Source: Chryseobacterium gleum (GTDB taxonomy: Bacteria > Bacteroidota > Bacteroidia > Flavobacteriales_F > PHOS-HE28). From it: a stretch of DNA of 64,000 bases. Made by a program: the position numbers and the translations under genes. The stretch spans positions 56,085 to 120,084 of the forward strand of contig CAMCAZ010000001.1 of the NCBI GenBank assembly GCA_945872795.1, read 5' to 3'. Positions within the stretch are counted from its first letter, which is position 1; every line of letters begins with the position of its first letter. The notes beneath the pieces are model-generated. The model was not told the origin of the DNA, did not search any database, and saw only the letters and a list, made by a program, of their open reading frames with translations. Shown here one piece after another: positions 11,737 to 61,535 of this stretch.

Positions 11737-11827
11737 ACCGTCACGTCCGCCTCAGCCCTTTGGTTGAGCCCACCATAAAGCACATCATCTCCGCGTTCAC
11801 GGCCGACAACTGTGCGCCGTCCGGTCT

Positions 11828-41584: not shown

Positions 41585-42280
41585 ATGAACCCTGTCGATG
41601 GAAATAGCCGTCTACCCCAAATCGGCGAGGACTGGTATCCGGAACTGCGGGATGCCTTTGACGCACCGTGGTTCCAAGAACTGCGCGCCTTTCTGGTCGA
41701 CGAGCGCAGCATCCATGCTGTCTATCCCCAAGGGCAGGATATTTTCAAGGCCTTCGATCGCTGTCCGTTCGCTTCCGTCCGGGTAGTGATACTCGGGCAG
41801 GACCCTTACCATGGTCCCGGACAGGCTCATGGGCTTTCGTTCTCCGTACCCAAGGGCGTACCCCATCCGCCTTCGTTGCGGAACATCTTCAAGGAGATCG
41901 AGCGGGACTTGGGACATCCCATCCCCATGTCGGGCGACCTCAGCTCGTGGGCCGACCAAGGTGTTCTGCTCCTGAACGCAAGCCTCACGGTCCGTGCTGA
42001 ACGGGCCGGATCGCACCAAGGGCGTGGCTGGGAACGGTTCACGGACCGCGTGATCCAGCGGCTATCCGAACGGCGCAGCGGCCTGGTGTTCCTGCTCTGG
42101 GGTCGCTTTGCCCAGGACAAGGAGAACTTGATCGACGGGCAGCGCCACACGGTGCTCAAAGCGCCGCATCCCTCCCCCCTGAGCGCCCACCGCGGGTTCC
42201 TTGGTTGTGGGCATTTCTCCAAGGTCAACGAGATCCTTGTGGCGCAAGGAACACCGCCCATCGACTGGTCGCTTGCATGA
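41585..42280 (+). CDS. ung: uracil-DNA glycosylase, family 1
   Basis: ...VVILGQDPYHGPGQAHGLSFSV... (water-activating loop) and ...HPSPLSA (His-loop). Confidence 0.9.
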   Translation: MNPVDGNSRLPQIGEDWYPELRDAFDAPWFQELRAFLVDERSIHAVYPQGQDIFKAFDRCPFASVRVVILGQDPYHGPGQAHGLSFSVPKGVPHPPSLRNIFKEIERDLGHPIPMSGDLSSWADQGVLLLNASLTVRAERAGSHQGRGWERFTDRVIQRLSERRSGLVFLLWGRFAQDKENLIDGQRHTVLKAPHPSPLSAHRGFLGCGHFSKVNEILVAQGTPPIDWSLA

Positions 42281-43995: not shown

Positions 43996-44014
43996 CCCGG
44001 ATGATATGTGCATC

Positions 44015-44635
44015 ATGCGCAAGGCCCTGATCATCGCTGGACTGGTGTGCTGCGGTCCGGCGATCATGGCACAACAAGGTCCGGAGCACCCCAGGCAGGG
44101 GCTGGCCGACCTGCTGCTGGAATACCTCGAGGTCCGCTACACCGGAACGGACCTCATGGGTGATATCCTCTATGTGTCCGTGCAGCGTCAATCCCTCTTC
44201 CACCTGCGGCGGAGGCGCCTCTTGAACGTCTATCCTGTCGCAACCTCCGGTAGGGGCCTGGGAGCGGAGACCGACTCGTACCGCACCCCGGAAGGCCTGC
44301 ACCGCATCAGCGACAAGGTCGGCGATGCGGTCCCCCCCTTGGGCATCCTGAAGGAACGGGTGTATACCGGCGAACTGGCCGACGTGGACTTCGCCGGGGT
44401 GGACAAGGACTGGATCACCTCGCGCATCCTTTGGCTTGATGGCCTGGAGCCCGGCTTGAACAAGGGGGGCTCAGTGGACAGTCATGATCGCTTCATCTAT
44501 ATCCACGGGACCGCGAACGAACGCTCCGTGGGAACGCCCACTTCGATGGGTTGCATCCGCATGTGCAATGCCGATGTGATCAAGCTGTATGATGCCGTGC
44601 CGGTCGGTGCGCTGGTGGTGATCCTGGACAACTGA
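44015..44635 (+). CDS. L,D-transpeptidase (YkuD domain)
   Basis: Signal peptide MRKALIIAGLVCCGPAIMAQ; catalytic ...HGTANERSVGTPTSMGCIRM... (H...S.GC[IV]R motif). Confidence 0.75.
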   Translation: MRKALIIAGLVCCGPAIMAQQGPEHPRQGLADLLLEYLEVRYTGTDLMGDILYVSVQRQSLFHLRRRRLLNVYPVATSGRGLGAETDSYRTPEGLHRISDKVGDAVPPLGILKERVYTGELADVDFAGVDKDWITSRILWLDGLEPGLNKGGSVDSHDRFIYIHGTANERSVGTPTSMGCIRMCNADVIKLYDAVPVGALVVILDN

Positions 44636-47367: not shown

Positions 47368-48111
47368 ATGGCTGACAAGGACCTGGTATGTGGCATCTGG
47401 CCGGTGATCGAAGCCTTGAAGGCGGGTAAGAACGTGGAGAAGCTGCTGATCCGGCGCGAAGCCGGCGGTGATGGCATCCGCGAGATCAGGCAAATGGCAT
47501 TGGACCGCCAGATACCCTGGCAACCCGTGCCGGCCGAAAAGCTGGACCGATTGACCCGTACGGAACACCAGGGCGTCATCGCGTTCCTGAGCCAGGTGGA
47601 TGAACAGGACTTGGACGAAGTGATCACGATGGCCTATGAGCAGGGCTACACGCCCTTGATCGTCGCCTTGGACAGCGTGACCGATGTGCGCAACATGGGT
47701 GCCATCGCCCGTAGCGCAGAATGCTTCGGTGCCCACGCCCTGCTGGTTCCCAAGATGGGGACCGCCCGCCTAGGCCCGGACGCGGTGAAGAGCTCCGCCG
47801 GGGCATTGGTGCGGAACCCCGTTTGCCGGGTCACCCGCTTGACCGATGGACTGAAACGGGCCCGGGACCATGGCGCCCGCATCGTGGCCTGCACCGAAAA
47901 AGGCACGACCCTGCTGGACGACGCCGACCTCACCGGTCCGCTGGTGCTGGTGATGGGCAGCGAGGATGAAGGGATCTCGGATGCTGTGCTTCGGCTGGCC
48001 GATGACCTGGTGCGCATCCCCATGGCCGGCCAGATCGGCTCGTTGAACGTGAGCGTGGCCACCGGCATTGCGCTTCACGCAGTCCTGAGGCAGCGGTCAG
48101 CGAAGAAATAG
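47368..48111 (+). CDS. rlmB: 23S rRNA (guanosine-2'-O-)-methyltransferase RlmB (SpoU/TrmH family)
   Basis: ATG (MADKDLVCGIWPVIEAL...) at 47368; SPOUT motifs ...LVLVMGSEDEGIS...IPMAGQIGSLNVSVATGIAL... Confidence 0.8.
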   Translation: MADKDLVCGIWPVIEALKAGKNVEKLLIRREAGGDGIREIRQMALDRQIPWQPVPAEKLDRLTRTEHQGVIAFLSQVDEQDLDEVITMAYEQGYTPLIVALDSVTDVRNMGAIARSAECFGAHALLVPKMGTARLGPDAVKSSAGALVRNPVCRVTRLTDGLKRARDHGARIVACTEKGTTLLDDADLTGPLVLVMGSEDEGISDAVLRLADDLVRIPMAGQIGSLNVSVATGIALHAVLRQRSAKK

Positions 48112-48266
48112 CCCCCCCTTCCGAACGCCGCGGCAACTTGCAGCGGTAGTGGCCAGGTCCTTCGGTGACCGATCGCAACCTTCTGTGGTCATTCCGGGTA
48201 GAAACGGTCCGGATCAACGCGGGTCCGTCCGGCTACTCACCGGTCGGTCCCTTAAGGAACAGGACC

Positions 48267-48632
48267 ATGAATACGGAAGACCTTCTGCAACGCGCACTGT
48301 CGATCGCGGTGTTGGCCTTTGCCACCATGCAAACGGCCAGTGCCCAAAGTTCCATCCAGGCACAGGCGCCCGTGATCCTCCATGTGGAGGGTCTCACCGC
48401 ATCCAAGCGGGACCTGGTCAAGCAGGAAATGGAGGCCCAGGGCGATCTGCGGATGAGCTACGCCTGCGTGCCGGCCGGCATTCTCATCCTAGAACCCGTT
48501 CCCGGCCGCTCTGTCGGTGATCTGCGTACACAGGTCGCACCCATCATCCGCCGTCACGTACCTGCAGGGCGATCGACCGAGCTCACCATCACGATCCAGC
48601 AAGCGGAGGACCGCTGCGCCCAAGTCCGCTGA
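48267..48632 (+). CDS. small secreted protein (121 aa) immediately upstream of the giant adhesin
   Basis: The ATG at 48267 gives MNTEDLLQRALSIAVLAFATMQTASAQ... (signal peptide). Its stop at 48630-48632 is 5 nt before the first ATG of the next ORF. No recognisable domain. Confidence 0.5.
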   Translation: MNTEDLLQRALSIAVLAFATMQTASAQSSIQAQAPVILHVEGLTASKRDLVKQEMEAQGDLRMSYACVPAGILILEPVPGRSVGDLRTQVAPIIRRHVPAGRSTELTITIQQAEDRCAQVR

Positions 48633-48678
48633 ACTCATGAGAACGCCACACTTCTCCAGCCCGCGCATGATCGGCAGC

Positions 48679-51600
48679 ATGAAACGGAACCTGATCGTCG
48701 CATCGTTCCTTTTCGCAGCATGCCCTTCATGGGCTCAACTCGCGGTGAACAGCCAGACCGATCTGCAACAGCTCGCAGAGGCCATTTCCGGACCGGGAGT
48801 ACGGATCACCAACCCCACGATCGATTGCCACGCTCAGGGGTTTGGCGAATTCACCTACACGGGCACATCCCTCGATGTGAACGAAGGCGTTCTGCTCACC
48901 ACGGGGACCATCGCGAACGCCGTGGGTCCGAACCTGGTCAGCAACAGGACCTTTGAACAGAACCGCCCGGGAAACGCCATTCTGAACACCGTCACCGGAC
49001 GCACCACCTTCGACGCCTGCCGTTTCGAGTTCGACATCATTCCCGGCGGAGATACGCTCGAGTTCAACTTCGCCTTTTCCAGTGAAGAATACAACGAGTG
49101 GGTGGGCTCCCAGTACAACGATGTGTTCGGCTTCTTCATCAGCGGTCCGGGCATCGTGGGCGATGCGGGGATCGGCAACGACAAAAACATCGCGCTGATA
49201 CCGGGTACCACGCAGGCCGTGACGATCAATACGGTCAACAATGCTTCGAACGAGGCCTACCACACGGACAACACGGGAGGCTCACACATACAATATGACG
49301 GCATCACCAACGGCCTGAGCGCCGTTTCCGCGGTACAGCCCTGCCAGACCTACAGACTGAAGCTCATCGTCGCGGACGCGTCGGACCGGAAATTCGATAG
49401 CGGTGTGTTCATTGAGCGCATCCAAAGCAACGCGATCGGCATGACCGCCACCACGGCCAATGGAATATCGGAAATGGTGGAAGGCTGTAATTCCGGTCTG
49501 CTGACGTTCACCCGGCAGAACATCACCGCCTCGCCCGTGGTGGTCCCCTACTTCCTCGCCGGAACCACCACGAACGGCGCGGACTATCCCTTGATCGGTG
49601 ATGCCGACCAGCTCATCGCCAAGCTTGTGACGATCCCTGGCGGATCGGCATCAGCCTCGGTCACCATCGACCCCATCGCCGATGGCATCAACGAGCCGCT
49701 GGAACTGTTGCGTGTGTACCTCAGCAACTCGGTATGTCCGGGGTCCTATATCGACAGCCTGGAACTGCCTTTGCGGGATACCCTCCTTGCCTCGGTGAAC
49801 AGTTCCACCTCCATTTGCTCGGGGAGCTCCATCACCCTCAACGCCAGTGGTGGCCTCAGCTATACCTGGACACCATCACTCGACCTGAGCGACCCGAACT
49901 CGGCCAGCCCGACCGTGGAACCCGGAACGACCACCACGTACACGGTGCAGGTGATGGCCGGGACCTGCGAAGCCAACCTGAGCACGACGGTGAGCGTGAG
50001 CAACATGCTCTTGAACGCGACCGTGACCCGGCCGCTCTGCCAGGGAAACACGAATGCCGCGATCAACCTCTCGGTCACGGGAGGGACCGCGCCTTACAGT
50101 TATTCCTGGAGCGGCCCGGGTGGCTATACCTCGAGTGCGGAGGACCTCGTCGGCATCGCTGCCGGCACGTACACCGTGACGGTCACTGATGGTGCTGCCT
50201 GCAGCGCGGTCCAGAGCTTCAATATCTCGGCTCCTTCGGCGCTCAGCATCACGACCTCTCCCAGCATCCTGGCCTTCGGAGAGAACATCGCCTGTTCCGG
50301 CGGCAATACGGGCTCCATCGGACTTGCGATCAATGGAGGTACAGCGCCCTATGCCGTGTCGTGGAGCGGCCCGAACGGGTTCACCGCCAACACCGCGAAC
50401 ATCAATGGCCTCGTTGCCGGCTCGTACACGGTGATCGTGACAGATGCCAATGGATGCAGTGTAAACGGCGAGCGCACCATGACATCGCCGGATGCGCTTC
50501 AACCCACGATCACCGATGTGGGCGGGAACACCTGCTTCGGAGGGTCGACCGGCATGGCCACCGTCACTATCTCCGGAGGTGTGCAACCACACAGCTTCAC
50601 CTGGAACAGCTCGCCTACCCAGTCCGAAGCCACCGCCACGGGACTCACCAGCGGCAACTACACCGTCTCCATCACCGATGGTTACGGTTGCACGACCACT
50701 GCACCCGTCGTTATTTCCGGTCCCGCTGCCGCGCTCAGTGGATCCATCAGCACTGTCGCACTGCCCTGTGCAGGCGTTCCGAGCGGCAGTGCCATGGTCG
50801 CGATAAGCGGAGGCACTGCGCCATACACGACGACCTGGAACACCGTTCCGACCCAGACCGGACCTACCGCCATCGGCCTGAGCAGCGGTCCCATCGCGGT
50901 CACCATCGCTGATGCCAATGGTTGCTCGACCACCGTAACCAGCTCCATCACCAGCCCTTCGCAGCCGCTTTCCGCCGGCATCGCTCAAACGATCGATGTG
51001 ACCTGCGCCGGTGCCGGGAACGGTTCGAGCACGGCGATCGCCAGCGGTGGCACCTCTCCCTATAGCTACTCATGGAACAGCCTCCCCAGCCAATCCGGTC
51101 CGCAACTGCAGAATGTGAACGGAGGCACCTACACCGTCACGGTCACCGATGCGAACGGCTGCAGTGCCACCGCATCCACTGTGATCGATGAGCCTTCACA
51201 GGTGACCACGGTCCAGGTGATCGACATGGTCGGCGTCTCCTGCTTCGGCGGTCAGAACGGCTCGGCCACGGCCAACGCGTCAGGCGGGAGCGCACCGTAT
51301 ACCTACTCCTGGAACAGCGTTCCGGCTCAGAACAGTGACGCTCTTTCCAATGTATCCGCAGGCACGTACACCGTCACCGTCACGGATGGCAATGGTTGCA
51401 TCGCCACGACCACAGCCACGATCGGGGGACCGTCCCAAGGACTGATCGTCGCCATCACGTCGTTCACCAATGTCACCTGCTTCGAGGATTCCACGGGTAC
51501 GGCGATCGCTGTCGCACAGGGAGGCACTGCTCCGTATGTCTATTCATGGAACAGTGTCCCCTTCCAGAGCGGTGCAACTGCTGAGGACCTGCCGGAAGGT

Positions 51601-54600
51601 GTGTTCACCGTGACCGCTTCGGACCAGAACGGATGTACCGCACAGACCACGGTCTCCATCGATGCTCCGGACCTCGAGCTCCTGGCCATGATCGAGAGCT
51701 ATTCGCACGTGAGCTGCTTCGGCGCGAACGATGGTACGGCCACCATCACCATCAGCGGTGGCAGCGGATCCTATTCAGTGGTCTGGGACACCCAGCCTGC
51801 ACAGACGGGTCTCACGGCCACGGGACTGTCCCCCGGCAACTACACCGCACTGGCCATTGACAATAACGGCTGCGACACACAAAAGCAGGTCAATGTCACC
51901 ATACTTGGTCCGAGTGCTCCACTGCAACTGGATCTGGCACTGAGCAACTACAACGGCTTTCAGGTCTCCTGTCCGACCGCCGAAGATGGAAGCATCGATC
52001 TCACCATCCAAGGTGGAACAGCACCGTACACCATCGTCTGGTCCGATACGCAGGGCAACACCGTCGGCTCCGAGGACATCAGCAACCTGAGCACCGACCT
52101 CTACACCATCGCGGTAACCGATGCCTTCGGCTGCCTGGTGGATTCCACGGTCCTGTTCACGGCACCGCCTGCCATCACAGCACAGGCCGCCATCACCACG
52201 GCCAGCTGCCAGGGTGCCACGACAGGTGCCATCGATATCACCGCAAGCGGGGGTGTCGGACCATTGCAAGCGAGTTGGACCGGACCGAACGGATACTCCG
52301 CGAACACGCTCGACATCACATCGCTCCAGGCCGGGATCTACACCCTGACCCTTACGGACGCGAACGGCTGCACTTCCGTGAACAGTTTCAATGTGAACGA
52401 ACCTGGACTGTTCCAGGTCTCCACCACGCTGAGCCAGTACACCGGTGGATGGAACGTTAGCTGCGCAACAGCCACCGATGGCGCCATCGACCTCACGGTA
52501 ACGGGTGGGTCACAGCCCTATACCTACCAGTGGAACGGACCCAATGGCTTCACCGCGAACACGGAAGATATCCAGAACATCGGTGTCGGGGAATATGAAC
52601 TGATCATCACCGATGACAATGGATGTACCACACGGGAGAACCAAACCATCGAAGGTCCGCTGCCTCTCACTATCACATGGTCGACCTCTTTGTTCGGCAA
52701 TACGGCGACCAGCTGTATTACCAGCGCTGATGGCAGCATAAACGCGACCATCAGCGGGGGTACACCAGGCTATCAGAGCAGCTGGACCGGACCGAACGGA
52801 TACACCAGTGGACTGGAGGATATCAGCGGGCTCACCGCAGGCACCTACACGATCGGTGTCATGGATGAGAACGGCTGCACAGCATCAGAAGTGATCACGT
52901 TGACCGCACCGCCATCCATCGACATCATCGTCGCAACCTCCACATCGGTCAGTGGTGAAGAGATCGCCTGCACCGGAGGAAACTCGGGGAGCATCGCGCT
53001 TGACCTCAGCGGAGGCACCGCACCCTTCAGCGTCATTTGGAGCGGACCGAACAGCTTCTTCTCGAACTCGACGGATATTTCCGGACTTACTGCTGGCACC
53101 TATCAGGCCAGCATCACCGATGGCAACGGTTGCCCAGCATCGACACAGGTGACCCTGAGCGAACCGACCCCGTTGGCCATCAGCTCGACGCTTTCGGACC
53201 AGAACGGCACAGGCGTTTCCTGCGCAACAGCGATGGACGGTAGCATCGACCTCGACATCACGGGCGGAGCCGCTCCGTACAGCGTCATATGGACCGGACC
53301 CAACGGGTTCATTTCGACCGCTGAAGATCTATCAGGCATCGGTGCCGGAAGCTACGCGGCCCTCATCACGGACGTGAACGGTTGCGAAGCCAGCTCCAGC
53401 CTGCTCATCACCGCCCCAACAAGCTTGACGGCCCAATTGAGCTTGACCCAGGCAATCGGGTGTTCCGGTTCCTCGCAAGGGGCCATTGACCTCGGCATTA
53501 CAGGTGGACTATCACCATACGATGTGGCCTGGACAGGTCCGAACGGTTTCTCCTCCACGGATGAGGACCTGAGCGCACTCTTCGCGGGCAACTACCAGGT
53601 CGCGATCACGGATGCGAACGGATGCATCACGGAAGGCTCCATAGGCCTGACCGAAGCTCCCGAGCTGACGTTGGGCCTGATCGCCAGCACCTTCGTTGGT
53701 GGTTCCAACATCCCATGCAGCGGTGGAGACGGCGGTGCTGTGGAACTGACCATCACCGGTGGAACTGCTCCGTTCACGATCCTCTGGACCGATGGCCTCG
53801 GATTCACCTCTACTGATGAAGACCTCACGAACATCGGTGCAGGTGCCTACCAGGTGAACGTCACGGACGCCAACGGTTGCATGGCTGACCAGCTGGTCAC
53901 CCTGACCGCACCACAAACGCTGGCAGCGGCATCCGTGGTCAGTGACTTCAACGGTTCATCCATCAGCTGCACCGGGGCATCAGATGGCTCCATCGACCTG
54001 ACCATCACAGGAGGCACTGCACCCTACGCCGTTCAATGGAACACCGGTACCATGGGGGAGGACCTCGGTGGCCTGAGCGAGGGCACGTATACGGCCAGCA
54101 TCACGGATGCCAACGGTTGTGCGCTGCAACTTTCCTTCGTGCTGTCGCCACCGCAAGGCATCGCGATCGACATCACCGCTCAATCGGACCTGAACGGCTT
54201 TGAGGTGAGCTGCGCGGGTGGGACCAACGGAACGTTGCAGGCCAGCGTGGGAGGAGGAAGTGGAGGCGTTTCGATCGCATGGACCGGACCCAACGGGTTC
54301 AGCAGTACTGACACGGACTTGAGCGGCCTTGCCCCGGGCAACTATGAATTGATCGCCACGGACCAGAACGGCTGCACTGCCAACAGTTCCATCACCCTGA
54401 ATGCACCTGCGCCCATCGGCATCCTGGCGAACAGTTTGGAGTACAACGGCGGCACGAACATCTCCTGCCAAGGCGCTTCGGACGGATCGATCGCAGTGGC
54501 CATCGGTGGTGGAGTGCCAGAGTTCGACATCGCCTGGAGCGGCCCGAACGGCTACAGTGCGGACAGTGCGACGATCAATGACCTCGTTGCCGGGACCTAT

Positions 54601-57141
54601 GTCATCACTGTGACGGATGGCAACGGATGCTCCACGGACGCCAGTGTCATCCTGAACGAGCCCGATGTACTGACCGCCACCACCATCCTGAGCGACGCCG
54701 GAGCCGGTCATCAAGTTGGCTGCTCCGGAACGGACGGCAGCATCGACCTCTCCGTTTCCGGGGGAACCACCGACCATTCCATCAGCTGGACCGGGCCCGA
54801 TGGTTTCGGATCACAGCAGGAGGACCTCAGCGGACTGGCCGCAGGAACCTATGCACTTCAGGTGACCGATGCGAACGGCTGTGTGTTCGAGCAAGTGGTC
54901 ACACTCACGCAGGGGCTGCCCATCGCGGCGGAACTCAGCAGCACGCCGGTAAGCTGTCCCGGTGACAACAACGGTGCGCTGGACCTGTCCCTCATTTCGG
55001 GTGAAGCTCCCTTCACCTTTGCCTGGAGCGGACCCAACGGACCGATCGCCAACACGGAGGACCTGAACGGGATCGAGGAAGGTGTTTACCAGGTGAACAT
55101 CACGGATGCGCTGGGATGCAGCGTCCTGCTCAGTGCCGAGGTACAGGAGCCCACTCCTATTCAAAGTGGCAGCTACCTGTCGTTCTATGGACAGTTCAAC
55201 CTGCAATGCGCCGGCGACAGCACCGGTGTCATCGAATTGGCGCCACAGGGTGGCAATGGCCCCTACGCCGTGAACCTAGCCGGGCCTGGCGGATACAGCA
55301 GCACTGCCACCGAGCATGAGGGGCTCGTTGCCGGCACCTACAACGTGAACATCACGGACGCATCCGGTTGTGCCTTCGACACCACCATCGTTCTGACCCA
55401 ACCTGACCAGGTGATCGACGCAACGCTCGAGGTGTCCGTCTATCCGAGCGGGACCAATGTGAGCTGCTACGGCGCCGCCGACGGTTCCATTGATGCGACG
55501 GTGAACGGTGGTGTCGGACCGTATGAATTCTTCTGGCGTGGACCGGACAGCTTGGAATTCAGCTCCGAGGATATCTCCGGCCTCACTGCCGGGCAGTACG
55601 CCTATGAACTGGTGGTGACCGATGCGAACCAGTGTTCGTTCTTCACCAACATCATCCTGGACCAGCCCGATACGCTCCTTTACGGCAGCACGGTCCTCAG
55701 CTCGTACAATGGAGGGTACCAGGTCTCCTGTCCCGGTGCCAGCGATGGCGCGATCGACCTGACGGTGCTGGGCGGAAATGGCGGCTACCAATACGATTGG
55801 AGCGGACCCACGGGAAGCCTTGGGAACGGCCAGGACCAGCAGGGGCTCACGAGCGGCAGTTACACCGTGACGGTGACCGACATCAATGGCTGCATCCTCA
55901 CCGAGGTCATCACCTTGAACGCACCGGAACCCCTGGGCATTGCGCTGGAACCTCTGGTGTATCCAGGTGGAAGCACGGTCAGCTGCAATGGCGCCAACGA
56001 CGGTCAGTTGTCGACCTCCATCATCGGCGGGGTGGGAGGCTATCTCTATTCCTGGACGGGGCCGAACGGCTTCAGCAGTGATGCTGCGATCATCACGGAC
56101 CTCGCCCCCGGCGAGTACTGCCTGAGCATACTCGACGCAAACGCCTGTTCCTCCACCGCTTGTGCGACCATCACACAGCCAGATGTCCTCACCTCCTCCA
56201 CCGATGTCACAAACGCCTTGTGTGGGGATGCCAATGGAACAATCGACCTCAGCGTTCTCGGCGGCAGCGCACCCTTCACCCATGCGTGGGACAATGGCGC
56301 CACCACGGAGGACCTGAGCGGTCTGAGCGGAGGTACATACCTCGTGTCCATCACGGATGCCAATGGATGTACGCTGAACGCATCCGCAACCGTGGCAAGC
56401 ACTCCCGGGGTGCTGGCCGAAGCGACCATCACCGACAATGTGTGTCATGGTGCTTCTGAAGGCGCCATCGATCTGCAGGTCACCAGTGGAAGCGCACCGT
56501 TCAGTTTTGTGTGGAGCAATGGGTCCACGGCAGAGGACATCGTCGCAGGACCTGCGGGCAGCTACTCCGTGACGGTGACCGATACCAACGGATGCACCTA
56601 CATCGGCGAGTACACCGTGACCGAGAACCCGGCACTGGTCATCGACACCCTGGTGACCCGCTACTCCACCGGCTTCGAGGTGAGCACCTGGCAGGGGAAC
56701 GACGGCAGTATCAGTACAAGCGTTTCCGGCGGCACAGCGCCCTACTCCTATGCGTGGTCGAACGGTGCTTCCTCATCGTCCATCAGTGACCTCGGTGCCG
56801 GCACCTACACGCTGGTGGTCACCGATGGCCTGGGATGCACGACGACGATCGCGATCACCCTCGATCAACCCAGCGATCTGGTGATGCCGACCGGTTTCAG
56901 CCCCAACGGTGATGGTGCGAACGATGCGTTCTGGATCCAGGGGCTGGATGCCTTTCCGGCGAACACCCTCTCGGTCGTCAACCGCTGGGGTAATGTGGTC
57001 TATGACCGCTTGAACTACCGTAATGATTGGAACGGTGAGAATACCGAGGGCCAGATGCTGCCCAGCGGCACCTACTTCGTGATCCTCGCTGTGAACAATG
57101 GTGAACGCACCTTGCAAGGTTTCGTAGACCTCCGTCGCTGA
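48679..57141 (+). CDS. giant SprB-repeat cell-surface adhesin with type-B T9SS (gliding-motility-associated) C-terminal domain
   Basis: About 2820 aa from the ATG at 48679 (MKRNLIVASFLFAACPSWAQ, signal peptide); an alternative ATG is at 48637. An N-terminal ~450-aa non-repeat region is followed by about 28 degenerate ~78-aa repeats of the form C.G...G.I.......GG..PY.Y.W.....................G.Y.V.VTD.NGC. (SprB repeat). The C-terminus PTGFSPNGDGANDAFWIQGLDAFPANTLSVVNRWGNVVYDRLNYRNDWNGE is the CHU_C / type-B T9SS CTD. Confidence 0.85.
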   Translation: MKRNLIVASFLFAACPSWAQLAVNSQTDLQQLAEAISGPGVRITNPTIDCHAQGFGEFTYTGTSLDVNEGVLLTTGTIANAVGPNLVSNRTFEQNRPGNAILNTVTGRTTFDACRFEFDIIPGGDTLEFNFAFSSEEYNEWVGSQYNDVFGFFISGPGIVGDAGIGNDKNIALIPGTTQAVTINTVNNASNEAYHTDNTGGSHIQYDGITNGLSAVSAVQPCQTYRLKLIVADASDRKFDSGVFIERIQSNAIGMTATTANGISEMVEGCNSGLLTFTRQNITASPVVVPYFLAGTTTNGADYPLIGDADQLIAKLVTIPGGSASASVTIDPIADGINEPLELLRVYLSNSVCPGSYIDSLELPLRDTLLASVNSSTSICSGSSITLNASGGLSYTWTPSLDLSDPNSASPTVEPGTTTTYTVQVMAGTCEANLSTTVSVSNMLLNATVTRPLCQGNTNAAINLSVTGGTAPYSYSWSGPGGYTSSAEDLVGIAAGTYTVTVTDGAACSAVQSFNISAPSALSITTSPSILAFGENIACSGGNTGSIGLAINGGTAPYAVSWSGPNGFTANTANINGLVAGSYTVIVTDANGCSVNGERTMTSPDALQPTITDVGGNTCFGGSTGMATVTISGGVQPHSFTWNSSPTQSEATATGLTSGNYTVSITDGYGCTTTAPVVISGPAAALSGSISTVALPCAGVPSGSAMVAISGGTAPYTTTWNTVPTQTGPTAIGLSSGPIAVTIADANGCSTTVTSSITSPSQPLSAGIAQTIDVTCAGAGNGSSTAIASGGTSPYSYSWNSLPSQSGPQLQNVNGGTYTVTVTDANGCSATASTVIDEPSQVTTVQVIDMVGVSCFGGQNGSATANASGGSAPYTYSWNSVPAQNSDALSNVSAGTYTVTVTDGNGCIATTTATIGGPSQGLIVAITSFTNVTCFEDSTGTAIAVAQGGTAPYVYSWNSVPFQSGATAEDLPEGVFTVTASDQNGCTAQTTVSIDAPDLELLAMIESYSHVSCFGANDGTATITISGGSGSYSVVWDTQPAQTGLTATGLSPGNYTALAIDNNGCDTQKQVNVTILGPSAPLQLDLALSNYNGFQVSCPTAEDGSIDLTIQGGTAPYTIVWSDTQGNTVGSEDISNLSTDLYTIAVTDAFGCLVDSTVLFTAPPAITAQAAITTASCQGATTGAIDITASGGVGPLQASWTGPNGYSANTLDITSLQAGIYTLTLTDANGCTSVNSFNVNEPGLFQVSTTLSQYTGGWNVSCATATDGAIDLTVTGGSQPYTYQWNGPNGFTANTEDIQNIGVGEYELIITDDNGCTTRENQTIEGPLPLTITWSTSLFGNTATSCITSADGSINATISGGTPGYQSSWTGPNGYTSGLEDISGLTAGTYTIGVMDENGCTASEVITLTAPPSIDIIVATSTSVSGEEIACTGGNSGSIALDLSGGTAPFSVIWSGPNSFFSNSTDISGLTAGTYQASITDGNGCPASTQVTLSEPTPLAISSTLSDQNGTGVSCATAMDGSIDLDITGGAAPYSVIWTGPNGFISTAEDLSGIGAGSYAALITDVNGCEASSSLLITAPTSLTAQLSLTQAIGCSGSSQGAIDLGITGGLSPYDVAWTGPNGFSSTDEDLSALFAGNYQVAITDANGCITEGSIGLTEAPELTLGLIASTFVGGSNIPCSGGDGGAVELTITGGTAPFTILWTDGLGFTSTDEDLTNIGAGAYQVNVTDANGCMADQLVTLTAPQTLAAASVVSDFNGSSISCTGASDGSIDLTITGGTAPYAVQWNTGTMGEDLGGLSEGTYTASITDANGCALQLSFVLSPPQGIAIDITAQSDLNGFEVSCAGGTNGTLQASVGGGSGGVSIAWTGPNGFSSTDTDLSGLAPGNYELIATDQNGCTANSSITLNAPAPIGILANSLEYNGGTNISCQGASDGSIAVAIGGGVPEFDIAWSGPNGYSADSATINDLVAGTYVITVTDGNGCSTDASVILNEPDVLTATTILSDAGAGHQVGCSGTDGSIDLSVSGGTTDHSISWTGPDGFGSQQEDLSGLAAGTYALQVTDANGCVFEQVVTLTQGLPIAAELSSTPVSCPGDNNGALDLSLISGEAPFTFAWSGPNGPIANTEDLNGIEEGVYQVNITDALGCSVLLSAEVQEPTPIQSGSYLSFYGQFNLQCAGDSTGVIELAPQGGNGPYAVNLAGPGGYSSTATEHEGLVAGTYNVNITDASGCAFDTTIVLTQPDQVIDATLEVSVYPSGTNVSCYGAADGSIDATVNGGVGPYEFFWRGPDSLEFSSEDISGLTAGQYAYELVVTDANQCSFFTNIILDQPDTLLYGSTVLSSYNGGYQVSCPGASDGAIDLTVLGGNGGYQYDWSGPTGSLGNGQDQQGLTSGSYTVTVTDINGCILTEVITLNAPEPLGIALEPLVYPGGSTVSCNGANDGQLSTSIIGGVGGYLYSWTGPNGFSSDAAIITDLAPGEYCLSILDANACSSTACATITQPDVLTSSTDVTNALCGDANGTIDLSVLGGSAPFTHAWDNGATTEDLSGLSGGTYLVSITDANGCTLNASATVASTPGVLAEATITDNVCHGASEGAIDLQVTSGSAPFSFVWSNGSTAEDIVAGPAGSYSVTVTDTNGCTYIGEYTVTENPALVIDTLVTRYSTGFEVSTWQGNDGSISTSVSGGTAPYSYAWSNGASSSSISDLGAGTYTLVVTDGLGCTTTIAITLDQPSDLVMPTGFSPNGDGANDAFWIQGLDAFPANTLSVVNRWGNVVYDRLNYRNDWNGENTEGQMLPSGTYFVILAVNNGERTLQGFVDLRR
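50030..56860 (+). repeat. intragenic array of about 28 degenerate tandem repeats (~234 bp / 78 aa each; SprB-type)
   Basis: The recurring protein motif GG(T/S)APY.Y.W(S/N)GPNG(F/Y) and ...VTDANGC... appears at roughly 78-aa spacing throughout the ORF. The DNA copies are diverged, with no long identical stretches. Confidence 0.75.
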
Positions 57142-57153
57142 TCCCCGAACACC

Positions 57154-58086
57154 ATGAGAACGCTTCAACATCTGATCCTCACGACCGCCATGGCGGTGTC
57201 CGGCAGCTCCGCCCTGGCGCAGCAGGAGGTCATGGTCAGTCAATACATGTTCAACGGGCTCTTCCTGAACCCGGCCTATGCGGGCAGCCATGGATACGTG
57301 AGCTCCAGCCTGCTCCACCGCGCCCAATGGATGCAGGTGGAAGGTGCTCCACGGACCAGCATGCTGGCGGTTGATGCCCCGCTGATGAACGGGTCCATGG
57401 GCCTCGGTTTTTCGCTGGTCCATGACCAGATCGGCGTAAGCCGTGACCTGGACCTATCGACACACTACGCCTACCACCTGCGCATCAGTGACGACAGCAA
57501 GCTGGCGTTCGGGCTGCGGGCGGGGCTCTCGATCTATTCGGCCAACCTCAATGAGCTCACGTACTGGGATGCCAATGACCAGGTCTTCCAGAACAACATC
57601 AGCAACCAGCTCGTGGGCAAGTTCGGATTCGGTCTATACTGGTACAATGCGACCTCCTACGTCGGTCTGTCGGTCCCCACCATTTATGCTGCCGATGGCA
57701 ACATCACCATGGATGTGGCCGGGGCACTGGACCACTACTTCACACAACACTACTACCTCCACGCCGGCAAGGTGTTCCCCTTGAGCGAGGTGTTCGACAT
57801 CAAGCCGAGCATCATGGTGAAATACCAGCCCCAGGCGCCTCTGCAGGGGGATGTGAACTGCAACCTCCTGTACAAGGAACGCGTGTGGTTCGGTGTGGGC
57901 TATCGCACCGGCGATGCCATGGTGGGCATGGTCGAATACCAGATCAACCCACAGCTCCGCATCGGCTACGCTTACGACATGACGACCTCACGGCTCCGCA
58001 ATTACACCAGTGGCAGCCATGAGGTGATGCTCGGCCTCGATCTCGGCCGGGAGCTCGTACGGATCAAGACACCACGCTACTTCTGA
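57154..58086 (+). CDS. type IX secretion system membrane protein PorP/SprF family
   Basis: Signal peptide then QQEVMVSQYMFNGLFLNPAYAGS... (the family-defining SQYMFN..LNPAYAG motif). 310 aa, which fits the family. Stop/start TGATG overlap with the next gene. Confidence 0.85.
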   Translation: MRTLQHLILTTAMAVSGSSALAQQEVMVSQYMFNGLFLNPAYAGSHGYVSSSLLHRAQWMQVEGAPRTSMLAVDAPLMNGSMGLGFSLVHDQIGVSRDLDLSTHYAYHLRISDDSKLAFGLRAGLSIYSANLNELTYWDANDQVFQNNISNQLVGKFGFGLYWYNATSYVGLSVPTIYAADGNITMDVAGALDHYFTQHYYLHAGKVFPLSEVFDIKPSIMVKYQPQAPLQGDVNCNLLYKERVWFGVGYRTGDAMVGMVEYQINPQLRIGYAYDMTTSRLRNYTSGSHEVMLGLDLGRELVRIKTPRYF

Positions 58087-59984
58087 TGCGCACCACGATG
58101 AACACGAAACTTGTGATGCTCCTCGGCCTGGTCGGGCTTGCCTCCTGTGCCGGACAACAGCTGGTGACAGCGGACAAGGCCTATGACCGCATGGCATACA
58201 GCAAGGCGGCCTGCAGCTACGAAAAGGTCCTTGACAAACGTGCGGACCGTGAAGCAGCCATCCATGCAGCGGATTCCTATCAACAGTTGAACAACCTGGA
58301 AAAGACCATCAAGTTCTACCGTATGGCGGACGGTATCTCACCGCTCAACGGCGAACATGCCCTGCGCTATGCACAGGCGCTCCAAGGTGAAGGACGTTGG
58401 GACGAGGCCTCGGCCGTGATGGCCCGGGTGCTGGCCGACAAGCAGGATGACCCGATGGTCGCCAGCCTGAATGAGGCCCTCAGCGCCCATCAGCGGTTCT
58501 ATGTGGATTCCTCCCTCTATACCGTGAGACCGTTGGAACTGGGACCGTTCACCGCAGTGTTCAGTGCCACACCCTATCAGGGAGGGCTGCTCTTTGCCGG
58601 TGAACGTCCAGCAAGTGGCTCGCAAGTGAACCCGTGGAACGGCGCGTCCTTTCTCGACCTCTACACCTCCAAGGCCTCGACCAACGGACAGTGGAGCGCC
58701 CCCGAACTGCTGAAAGGCGAAGTGAACGGTCGCTTCCACGATGGTCCCGCGGTGATCGGCCCCGACGGGCGCAGCCTCTATTTCACGCGCAGCGATTACC
58801 ACAAGTTCCGCTTGAACAAGGATGGTGGGTCGACCAGCCACCTCATGCTCTATCGTGCCGAACGCATGGCCGACGGTGGATGGGGCAACATCCATCAATT
58901 CGCGTTCAACGGTGGATCCTTCTCCACCGGACATGCAGCGGTGAGCAGGGATGGATCAGCGCTCTACTTCATCAGCGACCGGCCGGGAGGGCTGGGCGGG
59001 ACTGACATCTATCGTAGCACCAAAGCGGAAGAGGGATGGAGCGAACCCGAGAACCTCGGCCCCACCGTGAATACCGCAGGCAATGAAATGTTCCCGACCC
59101 TGCAGGGCGACACCCTGCTGTTCTCTTCCAACGGCCATGCAGGGCTTGGTGGCCTCGACATCTTCCGCAGCAGGCAGGTGGAGGGTGTATGGACCGCACC
59201 GGAGAACCTGAACTACCCCATCAACACCACCAACGATGACTTCTCCTTGATCATGCTGGCCAACGGTCAGCACGGTTTCCTCAGCAGCAACCGCACAGGG
59301 CAGGACCGCATCCATCGCTTCACGGAGAACGACCCCGTGCTTCGTCTGGTGGGAACCTTCACCGAAGCCGGGACCGGGCTGCCCATGGCCGGAGCCGAGG
59401 TCAGGCTCACCGACCTGACCTCCGGAGAGACACGTACCCTGATGACCGGCGCGGATGGCACATATGCCTTCGATCTGGCCAAGGGGCACGACCTCCGGGT
59501 ACAAGGGTCCAAAGGAGGCATGTTCACCGAAAATTCGGACCTGAGCACAAAGGGCCAGCGCACGGACCGCACCTACATCCAGGACTTCGCCTTGCAAGAA
59601 GTGGTGATCGACAAACCCATGGTGGTGGAGAACATCTACTACGACTACGATGAGTGGGATATCCGCACCGATGCTGCCCTGGAGCTGAACAAACTGGCGC
59701 GCCTGTTCATCGACAACCCGGAACTCAGCTTCGAGCTCAGCTCGCATACGGATAGTCGCGCTTCCGACCTGTACAACCTGGTGCTCAGCGAAGCACGTGC
59801 CAAGAGCGCTGTGGACCACTTGATCCGTCAGGGAGTAGACCCCGATCGCATCACGGCCAAGGGATGGGGAGAGAAATTCCTAGTGAACCGCTGCGGCAAT
59901 GACGTGGAATGTTCCGAAGACGAGCACCAGGCCAACCGACGCACGGAATTCAAGGTGACTCGCTACGGAAAGCCGGCCCCCTGA
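58086..59984 (+). CDS. OmpA-family protein with TPR, TolB-like beta-propeller (WD40-like) and carboxypeptidase-regulatory-like domains
   Basis: Lipoprotein-type signal (LLGLVGLASCAG); TPR-like N-terminus; repeated ...GG.DI... propeller blades (LGGTDIYRS, LGGLDIFRS); C-terminal OmpA_C (...NRRTEFKV). Confidence 0.8.
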   Translation: MRTTMNTKLVMLLGLVGLASCAGQQLVTADKAYDRMAYSKAACSYEKVLDKRADREAAIHAADSYQQLNNLEKTIKFYRMADGISPLNGEHALRYAQALQGEGRWDEASAVMARVLADKQDDPMVASLNEALSAHQRFYVDSSLYTVRPLELGPFTAVFSATPYQGGLLFAGERPASGSQVNPWNGASFLDLYTSKASTNGQWSAPELLKGEVNGRFHDGPAVIGPDGRSLYFTRSDYHKFRLNKDGGSTSHLMLYRAERMADGGWGNIHQFAFNGGSFSTGHAAVSRDGSALYFISDRPGGLGGTDIYRSTKAEEGWSEPENLGPTVNTAGNEMFPTLQGDTLLFSSNGHAGLGGLDIFRSRQVEGVWTAPENLNYPINTTNDDFSLIMLANGQHGFLSSNRTGQDRIHRFTENDPVLRLVGTFTEAGTGLPMAGAEVRLTDLTSGETRTLMTGADGTYAFDLAKGHDLRVQGSKGGMFTENSDLSTKGQRTDRTYIQDFALQEVVIDKPMVVENIYYDYDEWDIRTDAALELNKLARLFIDNPELSFELSSHTDSRASDLYNLVLSEARAKSAVDHLIRQGVDPDRITAKGWGEKFLVNRCGNDVECSEDEHQANRRTEFKVTRYGKPAP

Positions 59985-60002
59985 CCTGTGATCTCCGACG
60001 GA

Positions 60003-61535
60003 TCAGTTCTTGCCCGTCCGATGCACCATCTCGGTAAAGGAAACGCCCTCCGCGTGCGCCGACACCCACGATGCCACATCGAAATACTTGAGCACGAGGC
60101 TCTCGTTGGGGTCATTGAACAGTTTGTTCATCTGCTGCTGCATCGACCGGAACAGGTCGCGCTTCACCAAGGGGTCCGTGGCCCGCGCCAGCCGCTTGAT
60201 GGTATCGATCAACAGGATCTCCACCTGATGGGCGCGGTGGCGTTTGCTCAGGAAGCGCTGGGTGGAACGCACGATGTACTCCAACAGATCGTAGTTGCCC
60301 AGTTCATAGTGCACCACGAGGTTGAACAGTCTTGCATAGGTGAAGATGTCCTGGCGCAGCGTCGGTTCATTGTCGTTCAGCACCTTGTTCAACCAGAACA
60401 GGGACTTGTTCATCTCACCAGCGCCGAAGTGCGCGCAGGCCAGCGCATAGAAGAACTCCAGCTCATGCTCTTTGTGGAGCCGGTTGCCCATCTGCTCCAT
60501 GCCTTCGATGATCGTGTCCACCAGACCGATCGCCTTGGTATGCTCACCTGAGCGATCGAGGAGGCGCAGCTCGCTCAGGTAGCTGGCCACAAAGACCTGC
60601 GATTCAATGCTCTGGCCGAGGAACCCCGGAGTGCCGGGAAGCGAGCGCATCACCTTGATGTTCTCACGTGCGCTCTTCAGGTCCTGAAGTTCGATCTGGG
60701 CATTGATGATGTAGTGCAGGGTCCGGATGTAGCGCTTGGGGAGATCGGCCTTGATCAATGGGTTCTCATCCAGGATCTGTCGCACACGCTGGAACTTCTC
60801 AAGGCTGGTCTTCCAATCACGCTTGGCCCACTGGCAGAACCCTTGGGTGTAATAGCATATGGTGGCGGCGCGGCGGGACAGGGCCGTGTTCTTGCCCTTG
60901 ATCAAGGGGTGATCGCTGATCTCCTCCACGATCGCATGCTCCTCATCGGTACGCACGTAGCCGCCGCTGCGGAACACGTAGTTGATCTTGGAATACAGGA
61001 TGTGGTAGGACGCCAGGTTCCGGAGCTTCTCGATCACATCCCGCTCCTCCTCGATCAGGGCATCCAGGTCCTTGGTGAACTCACCGGACTCGTAAGCCTC
61101 CTCCAGCAACATCTTCTCCCAGTTGAGTAGCTCGAACCAGTAGTAGAAGCGCTCATTGTCCCGCGCGATCCGCTTCGCGCGATGCAGAAGCTTGTTGCAC
61201 TCCACGTAAAGCGCCTTCTGGTAGAGGATCTCGATGTTCTTGATCTCCTGCTTCAGGACCCCGCTGACACTGGCCTCGGCATGGTAGGCCCGCAGTGCCT
61301 TCAGGATCAGCTTGTAGAGGTGGTTCTTCTCCGAGGGCAGGTGCTTGATGAAGGTCTCCTTGGCGAATTGCTTCTTCACAGCCTCCTCGTCGTAGACTTT
61401 TTGCTTGTCCATCGCATCGAAGATCCGCAGGTAGTTCTTGTCGCCTGACTGCAACGAGGAATGAAGCTTGAAGAACCGTTTCTCCGACTTGGTCAGGGAT
61501 CGGATCAGGTCGTGGAGCTCGGTGCTGGGCTTCAT
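60003..61535 (-). CDS. hypothetical K/E/L-rich all-helical protein (511 aa)
   Basis: The ATG (MKPSTELHDLIRSLTKSEKRFFKL...) at 61535; the track ORF adds 83 implausible P/G/S-rich N-terminal codons. No signal peptide or recognisable motif. Confidence 0.55.
   Translation of the reverse strand: MKPSTELHDLIRSLTKSEKRFFKLHSSLQSGDKNYLRIFDAMDKQKVYDEEAVKKQFAKETFIKHLPSEKNHLYKLILKALRAYHAEASVSGVLKQEIKNIEILYQKALYVECNKLLHRAKRIARDNERFYYWFELLNWEKMLLEEAYESGEFTKDLDALIEEERDVIEKLRNLASYHILYSKINYVFRSGGYVRTDEEHAIVEEISDHPLIKGKNTALSRRAATICYYTQGFCQWAKRDWKTSLEKFQRVRQILDENPLIKADLPKRYIRTLHYIINAQIELQDLKSARENIKVMRSLPGTPGFLGQSIESQVFVASYLSELRLLDRSGEHTKAIGLVDTIIEGMEQMGNRLHKEHELEFFYALACAHFGAGEMNKSLFWLNKVLNDNEPTLRQDIFTYARLFNLVVHYELGNYDLLEYIVRSTQRFLSKRHRAHQVEILLIDTIKRLARATDPLVKRDLFRSMQQQMNKLFNDPNESLVLKYFDVASWVSAHAEGVSFTEMVHRTGKN

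Follow-up and report, generated by a model that had tools for sequence, protein, structure and literature searches.

A three-gene locus with a giant surface protein

How is a giant surface protein exported by the T9SS held at the cell, and does an OmpA-family lipoprotein encoded two genes further on have a part in holding it? The question is raised by three genes in a window of 64,000 nucleotides (the whole stretch of DNA that was analysed) from an uncultured Flavobacteriales lineage with a GC content of about 60%. The ORF listing of the window places all three genes on the forward strand, at the coordinates given by a sequence-only reading of this DNA. We find that the locus belongs to a known type of Bacteroidota three-gene set and is an ordinary, well-preserved case of it. 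The set comprises a giant surface fibre protein, the outer-membrane carrier dedicated to it and a PorE-like lipoprotein by which the fibre/carrier pair is probably fastened to the cell wall.

48267..48632, forward strand: small upstream ORF of 121 aa whose N-terminus resembles a signal peptide; might be co-transcribed, not proven to belong to the module
48679..57141, forward strand: gene A, giant T9SS type-B cargo and putative surface fibril adhesin of 2820 aa (single uninterrupted ORF; Pfam and NCBIfam domains)
57154..58086, forward strand: gene B, PorP/SprF-family outer-membrane protein of 310 aa (PF11751, TIGR03519)
58086..59984, forward strand: gene C, PorE-like periplasmic lipoprotein of 632 aa (NF053607, NF052230, lipobox)

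The junction sequence places the start of B 12 nt past the end of A, and the TGATG overlap that had been read between B and C is present in the sequence. This spacing and overlap fit coupled, roughly stoichiometric production. An alternative ATG for A at 48667 would give a protein of 2824 aa, which is the length used in a public assembly. A public assembly likewise counts the 121-aa ORF among its genes, and the ORF lies directly 5' of the adhesin gene in two orthologous loci (L002 and L004) as well. It has no family match in Pfam or NCBIfam.

Gene A encodes a repeat stalk, a sorting domain and a head modelled as a jelly roll

The domain assignments for the products of A, B and C have E-values that are far beyond chance. 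Those of A divide the protein as follows.

48679..48738, forward strand: predicted Sec signal peptide, MKRNLIVASFLFAACPSWAQ, read by eye from the translation
48766..49419, forward strand: choice-of-anchor-L head domain, aa 30-247 (NCBIfam; modelled as a beta-jelly roll)
49471..49788, forward strand: Calx-beta-like beta-sandwich, about aa 265-370 (boundaries from the structure model)
49804..49998, forward strand: Ig_7-like (CHU_C-associated Ig) unit, aa 376-440 (weak Pfam match and custom HMM)
50035..56871, forward strand: 28 tandem SprB-type repeats, aa 453-2731 (Pfam SprB and custom repeat HMM)
56884..57141, forward strand: type-B T9SS C-terminal sorting domain, aa 2736-2820, and stop codon (PF13585, TIGR04131)

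Most of the protein is a stalk of SprB repeats, which Pfam SprB detects at E=4e-184 in 27 stretches. A custom SprB-unit HMM built for counting the repeats finds 28 strong units of 65-84 bits each across aa 453-2731, so that an earlier estimate of "about 28" can be made exact. The repeat period is 74-87 aa (mostly 79-85), and mean identity between units is 38%. Each unit has two Cys residues except the last, where the first Cys is missing (27 of 28 with both). Orthologues in L002 and L004 also carry 28 repeats, and the PorE-like proteins of these loci are 58-62% identical to that of the window.

The CHU_C/type-B sorting domain predicted for the C-terminus is recovered by both relevant models. 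PF13585 matches aa 2736-2817 in one stretch (E=9e-24, 83.8 bits; cut-off 27) and TIGR04131 matches aa 2736-2820 (46.3 bits; cut-off 35). A type-A CTD (TIGR04183/PF18962) was rejected, as its 64 bits over the whole protein include no single passing stretch and reflect summed weak matches.

The N-terminal head begins with a choice-of-anchor-L domain (NF038133/PF26766), which had been proposed with low confidence and proves to be a very strong match (228.2 bits against a cut-off of 27, E=7.9e-68, model positions 1-216 of 219). The next segment, read earlier as Calx-beta-like, falls below significance against Pfam PF03160 in the window sequence itself. Matches to this family in 50 of the 74 proteins homologous to the N-terminal region of A support it as a putative Calx-beta-like domain. 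The Ig_7-like unit that follows is divergent, with a Pfam Ig_7 match of E=0.0016 that is below the cut-off and 24.6 bits on the custom SprB-unit HMM.

In our structure model the head domain adopts a lectin/glucanase-like jelly roll, to which no solved structure is closely related. Its structural matches are GH16 and PL7 enzymes and CBMs at 5-21% identity, and they are generic beta-sandwich similarities. The fold common to these proteins might be taken to mean that A is not an adhesin and instead forms another T9SS surface structure, such as a spacer, a surface-layer element or a prey-capture fibre, with an enzymatic or structural head. We regard this as very improbable, given that the matches are of such a generic kind, that neither Pfam nor NCBIfam places any part of A in a catalytic family, and that type-B cargos are adhesins, whether known or predicted (PMC12618676).

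Gene B encodes the presumed partner of A

The assignment of B to the PorP/SprF family holds firmly, with E=5e-77 on PF11751 PorP_SprF and 282.5 bits on TIGR03519 (cut-off 90.55; model positions 5-291 of 292). The motif SQYMFNGLFLNPAYAG, quoted earlier in favour of this assignment, is present. The pairing of cargo and PorP/SprF partner was also correctly recognized. B lies directly downstream of A, the usual place of the gene for the PorP/SprF-like protein on which secretion of a type-B cargo depends. Both SprB and Fjoh_3952 need a downstream SprF-like partner for secretion, and B is the presumed cognate shuttle and anchor for A.

Gene C encodes a PorE-like lipoprotein

58173..58490, forward strand: TPR region, about aa 30-135 (TPR_19 at aa 74-128; extent by analogy with PorE)
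58533..59330, forward strand: beta-propeller (PD40/WD40-like), approximately aa 150-415 (PD40 and alignment)
59346..59546, forward strand: carboxypeptidase-regulatory-like (CRD) domain, aa 421-487 (PF13620)
59625..59963, forward strand: OmpA_C-like peptidoglycan-binding domain, aa 514-626 (PF00691, 6TOP)

Every domain that had been proposed for the third gene is found. The protein has a lipobox (LASC, Cys21), followed in Pfam order by TPR_19 (aa 74-128, E=2e-6), PD40 (E=3.5e-10, best stretch aa 285-310), CarboxypepD_reg (PF13620, E=9e-7, 29.6 bits, slightly under the cut-off of 32.3) and OmpA (PF00691, E=3e-12). A lipoprotein with TPR, beta-propeller, CRD and OmpA_C in this order has the architecture of PorE (PMC7192894). 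We set the extent of the TPR region by analogy with PorE residues 25-149, and that of the propeller from PorE residues 167-435 (PMC7192894) together with the way C aligns over its full length with the PorE and CHU_0125 models.

The best PDB match of C is 6TOP, the crystal structure of the PorE OmpA_C domain bound to peptidoglycan (E=5e-19). PorE contacts peptidoglycan through Asp576, Asn584 and Arg591 (PMC7192894), and in a phmmer alignment to 6TOP all three (D576, N584, R591) correspond to identical residues of C (D556, N564, R571). Among NCBIfam models, C scores best on NF053607 CHU_0125 (416.6 bits, model positions 4-638 of 639) and also matches NF052230 T9SS_PorE over its full length (372.5 bits), under the respective cut-offs of 620 and 600. 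From these similarities C is a PorE-like protein, and the sequence-only reading was wrong to call this OmpA-family member uncharacterised. Because C fails both cut-offs, any transfer of function to it is made from a paralogous clade.

Cargo-linked PorE-like proteins form a clade of their own

We sampled 80 PorE-like loci from species-representative genomes, namely the 80 best matches to C alone. A PorP-like gene lies directly upstream in 45 of them, and in 44 of these 45 the next gene upstream encodes a type-B CTD. Every match of at least 37% identity with enough flanking sequence has the three-gene arrangement, which also accompanies a 614-aa choice-of-anchor-L cargo (NCBI: a Chitinophagales MAG). 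The locus of C has the same pattern, with a porE-like gene downstream of a porP/sprF-like gene that itself follows a type-B cargo gene.

In a neighbour-joining tree of these 80 best matches, computed without support values, all cargo-linked proteins (45 linked homologues and C) fall in one clade and all stand-alone proteins in the other. The NCBIfam cut-offs divide them in the same way: stand-alone copies pass that for PorE or CHU_0125 (659-929 bits on NF052230 for Bacteroidales and Prolixibacteraceae homologues, 857-999 bits on NF053607 for Cytophagales homologues), whereas cargo-linked copies pass neither.

These data bear on whether C could be the general T9SS PorE of this organism, serving all secretion and merely adjoining a cargo/PorP pair. 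The four-domain architecture and the shared peptidoglycan-binding residues are compatible with such a role, P. gingivalis requires PorE to secrete its gingipains (PMC7192894, PMC12773672), and none of the stand-alone PorE/CHU_0125-type loci among the 80 best matches is from Flavobacteriales. However, C and all linked copies lie outside the PorE and CHU_0125 clades and below the curated cut-offs, and tight coupling to the porP/sprF-like gene is kept across orders. In addition, F. johnsoniae has five or six linked copies and C. hutchinsonii "many" PorE homologues (PMC9143113, PMC12618676, PMC11611037), and such multiplicity points to dedicated paralogues. We therefore judge a general role to be unlikely, and C is probably a dedicated paralogue rather than a core PorE.

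A proposed wall-anchored fibril module

Domain identities, gene order, their conservation and the retained peptidoglycan-contact residues were observed directly. On this basis, we think it likely that the three genes form a self-contained T9SS "type-B" surface-fibril module that is statically anchored to the wall via C. Product A would be exported by Sec and recognized by the T9SS translocon through its type-B CTD. The dedicated PorP/SprF-like barrel B would then collect A and keep it bound at the cell surface, without A-LPS linkage. Beneath the outer membrane, the TPR and beta-propeller part of lipoprotein C would bind the periplasmic face of B, and OmpA_C would bind peptidoglycan. Since C would tie B to peptidoglycan, the fibril should be fixed in place rather than carried round the cell by the gliding machinery.

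In the fibril, the 28 Ig-like SprB units would make up a stalk with a length of very roughly 100 nm, as estimated from typical Ig-domain length. The stalk would carry a distal head combining the lectin/glucanase-like jelly roll (choice-of-anchor L), the Calx-beta-like domain and the Ig_7-like unit. The head may serve in ligand binding, with Ca2+-dependent recognition of a glycan as one possibility. We infer all of the interactions, and the static behaviour of the module, from homologues. PorP binding and peptidoglycan binding have been shown only for P. gingivalis PorE (PMC9143113, PMC7192894), and the papers that propose the static-anchor model still label it a hypothesis (PMC9143113, PMC12618676). 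That C tethers the adhesin/PorP complex to peptidoglycan, as first suggested from the gene's domain architecture, is the best-supported reading by homology.

SprB repeats also invite a different interpretation, where A is a mobile gliding adhesin like SprB of F. johnsoniae, propelled by the motor, and B is the SprF-like link to the track. SprB binds SprF (PMC9143113), and some type-B CTDs direct cargo to the gliding machinery (PMC12618676). However, B shows translational coupling to a porE-like gene, and the genes upstream of A (YkuD, RmuC, GWxTD, SpoU and the 121-aa ORF) include none that is sprC/sprD-like. Travel round the cell would also be hard to square with a peptidoglycan anchor, and we consider a mobile adhesin improbable.

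Significance

The importance of the locus is modest: it illustrates, in a clean natural form, the static branch that has been proposed for type-B T9SS targeting. It opens no new mechanism; the one invoked here dates from a proposal of 2022, with an extension in 2025. The four-domain architecture of PorE, its peptidoglycan binding and its complex with PorP and a type-B cargo are all published (PMC7192894, PMC9143113), and so is the idea that PorE ties PorP and type-B cargo to the wall (P. gingivalis PorE-PorP-PG1035; Fjoh_3952-3951-3950 operons). What we add is a linked PorE-like clade apart from stand-alone PorE and CHU_0125, the conserved count of 28 repeats, and the jelly-roll model of the head. 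The arrangement is widespread, as seen from the 45 of 80 sampled PorE-like loci with a PorP-like gene directly upstream, and the linked clade is missed by current NCBIfam equivalog models. In annotation, the label "OmpA family protein" could be replaced by "cargo-linked PorE-like tether", and static and mobile type-B fibrils might be told apart from sequence.

Cargo-linked PorE-like lipoproteins may be a family without a curated model, apart from core PorE and CHU_0125. A broader joint reading, which we offer tentatively and think less probable than not, combines this distinct family with a marker for static fibrils, a length-tuned stalk and a possible general anchor. If it is true, a PorE-like gene in the operon would mark a T9SS fibril as attached to peptidoglycan and not mobile. 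In this lineage the stalk would be tuned in length, with exactly 28 diverged repeats kept in orthologues whose PorE-like proteins share only 58-62% identity with C. Such a stalk could hold out a jelly-roll head with Ca2+-dependent glycan binding past a layer of capsule or EPS. Where a lineage has no stand-alone PorE, the linked copies might in addition serve as the general wall anchor of its T9SS.

Comparison with known systems

Short proteins of about 615 aa with choice-of-anchor-L, Calx-beta and CHU_C domains (many of them NCBI Chitinophagales) have a head that is 37-40% identical to aa 21-445 of A and the same type of CTD, but no SprB-repeat stalk. At least one of these (P0066) is encoded in the same order of cargo, PorP and PorE-like genes as in the window, whereas some others, P0109 among them, lack an adjacent PorP or PorE-like gene.

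CHU_0125 (NF053607, OmpA-like outer membrane integrity protein) and C belong to one PorE-like superfamily. However, C is below the cut-off of 620, and the sampled CHU_0125-type genes stand alone in a separate clade. [quoted passage not shown] The protein is no tether for a specific cargo, which is the role proposed for C.

SprB and SprF resemble A and B in combining a SprB-repeat fibril, a type-B CTD and a PorP/SprF-like gene immediately downstream, and the operon context of SprB has no porE-like gene (PMC9143113). The two cargos differ in size and N-terminal head. The F. johnsoniae genes form a sprCDBF operon, with sprC and sprD upstream of sprB; A lacks such genes upstream, and the window has a coupled porE-like gene downstream.

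The P. gingivalis genes for PorE, PorP and PG1035 are presumably unlinked in the genome, and the sampled Bacteroidales PorE-type genes stand alone, whereas C is linked. Like C, P. gingivalis PorE (PG1058) has TPR, beta-propeller, CRD and OmpA_C in that order, with the peptidoglycan-contact Asp, Asn and Arg kept (PMC7192894). In the PorE-PorP-PG1035 complex, cross-links join PorE to PorP and PorP to PG1035, which is located at the surface without A-LPS modification; as proposed for A and B, a PorP-family barrel binds a type-B cargo without an A-LPS link (PMC9143113). In contrast to C, which falls in a different clade (372 bits, where the PorE model requires 600) and is probably cargo-dedicated, PorE in P. 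gingivalis is a core T9SS component.

F. johnsoniae has recurring operons of type-B cargo, porP-like and porE-like genes, for which the same tethering hypothesis was put forward (PMC9143113, PMC12618676). Compared by description, Fjoh_3952, Fjoh_3951 and Fjoh_3950 have the gene order of the window: type-B-CTD cargo, PorP/SprF-like and PorE-like. The body of A differs from that of Fjoh_3952 in its choice-of-anchor-L/Calx-beta-like/Ig_7-like head and 28 SprB repeats, and the window comes from an uncultured Flavobacteriales lineage of about 60% GC. Fjoh_3952, in an operon with PorE-like Fjoh_3950, depends on its downstream shuttle and forms static foci only; the study that describes it suggests attachment of this cargo to the cell wall by the PorE homologue (PMC12618676).

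Gene organization and genomic neighborhood

The module consists of three co-oriented genes, in which a giant T9SS type-B cargo is followed by a PorP/SprF-family protein and a PorE-like lipoprotein.

Gene A: 48679-57141, + strand, giant T9SS type-B cargo, 2820 aa
Gene B: 57154-58086, + strand, PorP/SprF-family protein, 310 aa, starting 12 nt past the stop codon of gene A
Gene C: 58086-59984, + strand, PorE-like lipoprotein, 632 aa, overlapping the stop codon of gene B in the sequence TGATG

One public assembly, in which the locus is identical, starts gene A at an ATG four codons upstream (2824 aa). The tight spacing of the three genes fits stoichiometric co-production, an argument already made for type-B cargos and their shuttles (PMC12618676). 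A scan of positions 48000-60300 for promoters and terminators returned counts at or below shuffled expectation and gave no operon boundary; its sigma-70 consensus is in any case ill-suited to Bacteroidota. A small ORF (48267-48632, + strand) of 121 aa, whose N-terminus resembles a signal peptide, is located 34-46 nt before the start of the adhesin gene. Two related loci (L002 and L004) keep it at the same position, and the public assembly annotates it as a gene. This ORF matches no family in Pfam or NCBIfam, and could be a fourth operon member.

The module is flanked by housekeeping genes unrelated to it, including YkuD, RmuC, GWxTD and SpoU genes upstream and, downstream, a convergent 510-aa gene on the - strand and then an M1 peptidase gene. 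A scan of species-representative genomes assigned the locus to uncultured Flavobacteriales, with the closest relative in MAG JTS-AC70 (95% amino-acid identity) and the next at 48-62%. Both downstream genes, BT2802-like and M1 peptidase, are syntenic in seven related loci (L001-L007). Because the flanking genes are syntenic in relatives, and the small upstream ORF is kept in L002 and L004, a mobile island is ruled out. GC content is ~60% across the whole window, with no compositional break at the three-gene locus.

Other coding regions in the window were noted as follows.

8992-11736, + strand: beta-helix protein, likely type-A cargo, with a Por_Secre_tail score just under the cut-off
16759-19104, - strand: Wzz/GNVR/AAA_31 polysaccharide co-polymerase tyrosine-kinase-like gene, pointing to a capsule or EPS locus ~30 kb upstream of the three-gene module
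28858-30225, + strand: LVIVD-repeat protein, likely type-A cargo, with a Por_Secre_tail score above the cut-off
42205-43995, + strand: ORF with POTRA and weak BamA/TamL matches
42289-44067, - strand: ORF without matches, antisense to the preceding one over nearly its full length; the real gene is probably that on the + strand
60003-61535, - strand: conserved 510-aa gene converging on gene C, with 18 nt between the stop codons
61634-64000, + strand: M1 peptidase, likely T9SS type-A cargo, of which a full-length copy in related locus L081 has a weak Por_Secre_tail match

In comparisons with L001-L007, the 510-aa gene scores ~880-1140 bits. No Pfam family matches it, and its BT2802 family match is sub-threshold (189 bits, cut-off 550). 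Conservation in the related loci places this gene on the - strand from 60003 to ~61535, and the + strand ORFs at 59988-61448 are thus spurious, having come from greedy ORF picking in a GC-rich window.

The repeat stalk and sorting domain of gene A

Pfam SprB matches the product of gene A with E=4e-184, and an HMM built from its own units detects 28 strong repeats between aa 453 and 2731, at 65-84 bits each. The period is 74-87 aa (mostly 79-85), and two conserved Cys residues are present in 27 of the 28 units, the first Cys being missing from the last unit. Cargo orthologues in L002 and L004 carry exactly 28 repeats each. The units average only 38% identity, and the array is an old one. This divergence and the count kept in orthologues rule out both a recently amplified array and one collapsed in assembly.

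The C-terminus of gene A is a type-B sorting domain, with CHU_C matching in one stretch (Pfam, 83.8 bits) and TIGR04131 at 46.3 bits (cut-off 35). A type-A reading is ruled out, since its apparent score includes no stretch that passes alone.

The head region of gene A

A choice-of-anchor-L domain occupies aa 30-247 (NCBIfam, E=7.9e-68; 228 bits, cut-off 27). The sequence-only reading had proposed this domain with low confidence; the domain stands, and the match is unambiguous. That reading had also placed a Calx-beta-like segment in the head. A Pfam search of aa 248-450 at E up to 10 returned no Calx-beta match and only a weak match to Ig_7. The segment is nevertheless supported at ~aa 265-370 by homologues of the N-terminal region, 50 of 74 of which match PF03160 (Calx-beta), and by structure, rather than by the window sequence. 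The own-unit HMM places a divergent repeat unit at aa 376-440, where Pfam weakly calls Ig_7. A PDB sequence search with the N-terminal 450 aa found no meaningful solved relative, and among the choice-of-anchor papers listed (15 of 33), none had a title or abstract on the L family. A non-adhesin role for gene A, whose sole argument is generic fold similarities, is highly improbable.

The same head also occurs without a stalk, in ~615-aa proteins that carry it directly on the sorting domain, many of which are named by NCBI as derived from Chitinophagales MAGs. One 614-aa cargo of this kind (P0066) lies in a cargo, PorP, PorE-like arrangement as in the window, whereas another head-family member (P0109) has no adjoining PorP or PorE-like gene. 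The P0066 locus (L085) is labelled Chitinophagales by NCBI, and its PorE-like partner (9090-11744, + strand) is 884 aa, ~250 aa longer than the product of gene C. Two tandem choice-of-anchor-L/CHU_C cargo genes on a 4.4-Mb contig (L087, 3857-7914, + strand) have no adjacent PorP- or PorE-like gene, which makes them 'orphan' type-B cargos that share this head. In a Bacteroidetes MAG (L026, 9142-12612, + strand), a second choice-of-anchor-L cargo with a type-B sorting domain is immediately downstream of the PorE-like gene of a three-gene module, where two cargos may share a single shuttle/tether pair.

Genes B and C and the PorE-like family

Gene B belongs to the PorP/SprF family (TIGR03519, 282.5 bits; cut-off 90.55). 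Gene C carries a lipobox (LASC, Cys21) followed by the Pfam domains TPR_19, PD40, CarboxypepD_reg and OmpA. It aligns at full length to two NCBIfam models, CHU_0125_OmpA at 416.6 bits (cut-off of 620) and T9SS_PorE at 372.5 bits (cut-off of 600). Because both scores fall under the cut-offs, gene C is classed by sequence as PorE-like, yet as an equivalog of neither family. Its best solved-structure match is 6TOP (E=5e-19), the OmpA_C domain of Porphyromonas gingivalis PorE crystallised with a peptidoglycan fragment, in which the side chains of Asp576, Asn584 and Arg591 contact peptidoglycan (PMC7192894). D556, N564 and R571 of gene C align to these residues.

Gene order was tallied at the best 80 PorE-like loci in species-representative genomes.

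Gene order at the best 80 PorE-like loci
PorP-like gene directly upstream: 45 loci
Type-B-CTD gene upstream again of the PorP-like gene: 44 of those 45 loci
Stand-alone PorE-like gene: 33 loci
Too short to judge: 2 loci

A neighbor-joining tree of these proteins, midpoint-rooted, splits all linked copies, gene C included, from all stand-alone copies. Of the genes sampled, five stand-alone ones score above the PorE (659-929 bits) or CHU_0125 (857-999 bits) cut-off, whereas five linked ones (335-453 bits) pass neither. The position of gene C in the linked clade and its sub-threshold scores make it unlikely that this is the organism's general PorE, even though the best 80 loci include no stand-alone PorE from Flavobacteriales.

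Proposed mechanism and comparison with known systems

The best-supported reading is that Sec exports the gene A product, which the T9SS would then translocate by means of its type-B sorting domain. The gene B protein would collect this cargo and hold it at the surface. The gene C lipoprotein, anchored by lipid in the outer membrane, would bind both the gene B protein and peptidoglycan, thereby fixing the fibril. Domain identities, gene coupling and conserved residues predicted to bind peptidoglycan can be read from the DNA, and all contacts and the presumed static behavior are drawn by analogy with P. gingivalis and Flavobacterium johnsoniae.

In P. gingivalis, the type-B cargo PG1035 belongs to a complex with PorP and PorE; cross-links join PorE to PorP and PorP to PG1035, and PG1035 is surface-located without A-LPS modification (PMC9143113). 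In F. johnsoniae, porE-like genes adjoin six porP-like genes but not sprB and sprF, and PorP-PorE-like complexes were postulated to anchor non-mobile type-B proteins to the wall (PMC9143113). SprB and Fjoh_3952 each require their own downstream shuttle; Fjoh_3952 forms static foci only, and its operon, one of five such operons counted, includes the PorE-like gene Fjoh_3950 (PMC12618676). 'Many' PorE homologues are listed for Cytophaga hutchinsonii (PMC11611037). A mobile, SprB-like gliding adhesin is an unlikely alternative for gene A, given the PorE-like gene coupled at the locus and neighbors that lack sprC/sprD-like genes.

The three-gene module described by the sequence-only reading is confirmed and its interpretation largely holds, except that the OmpA-family member was incorrectly called uncharacterised: gene C is PorE-like. 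Its proposal that gene C tethers the adhesin/PorP complex to peptidoglycan is sound but not new, because such complexes and operons have been described (PMC9143113; PMC12618676). Thus, the locus itself is not novel. It makes four modest additions to the known systems: an apparently separate clade of cargo-linked PorE-like proteins, a conserved count of 28 repeats, a predicted fold for the choice-of-anchor-L head, and the occurrence of this head both with and without an SprB-repeat stalk.
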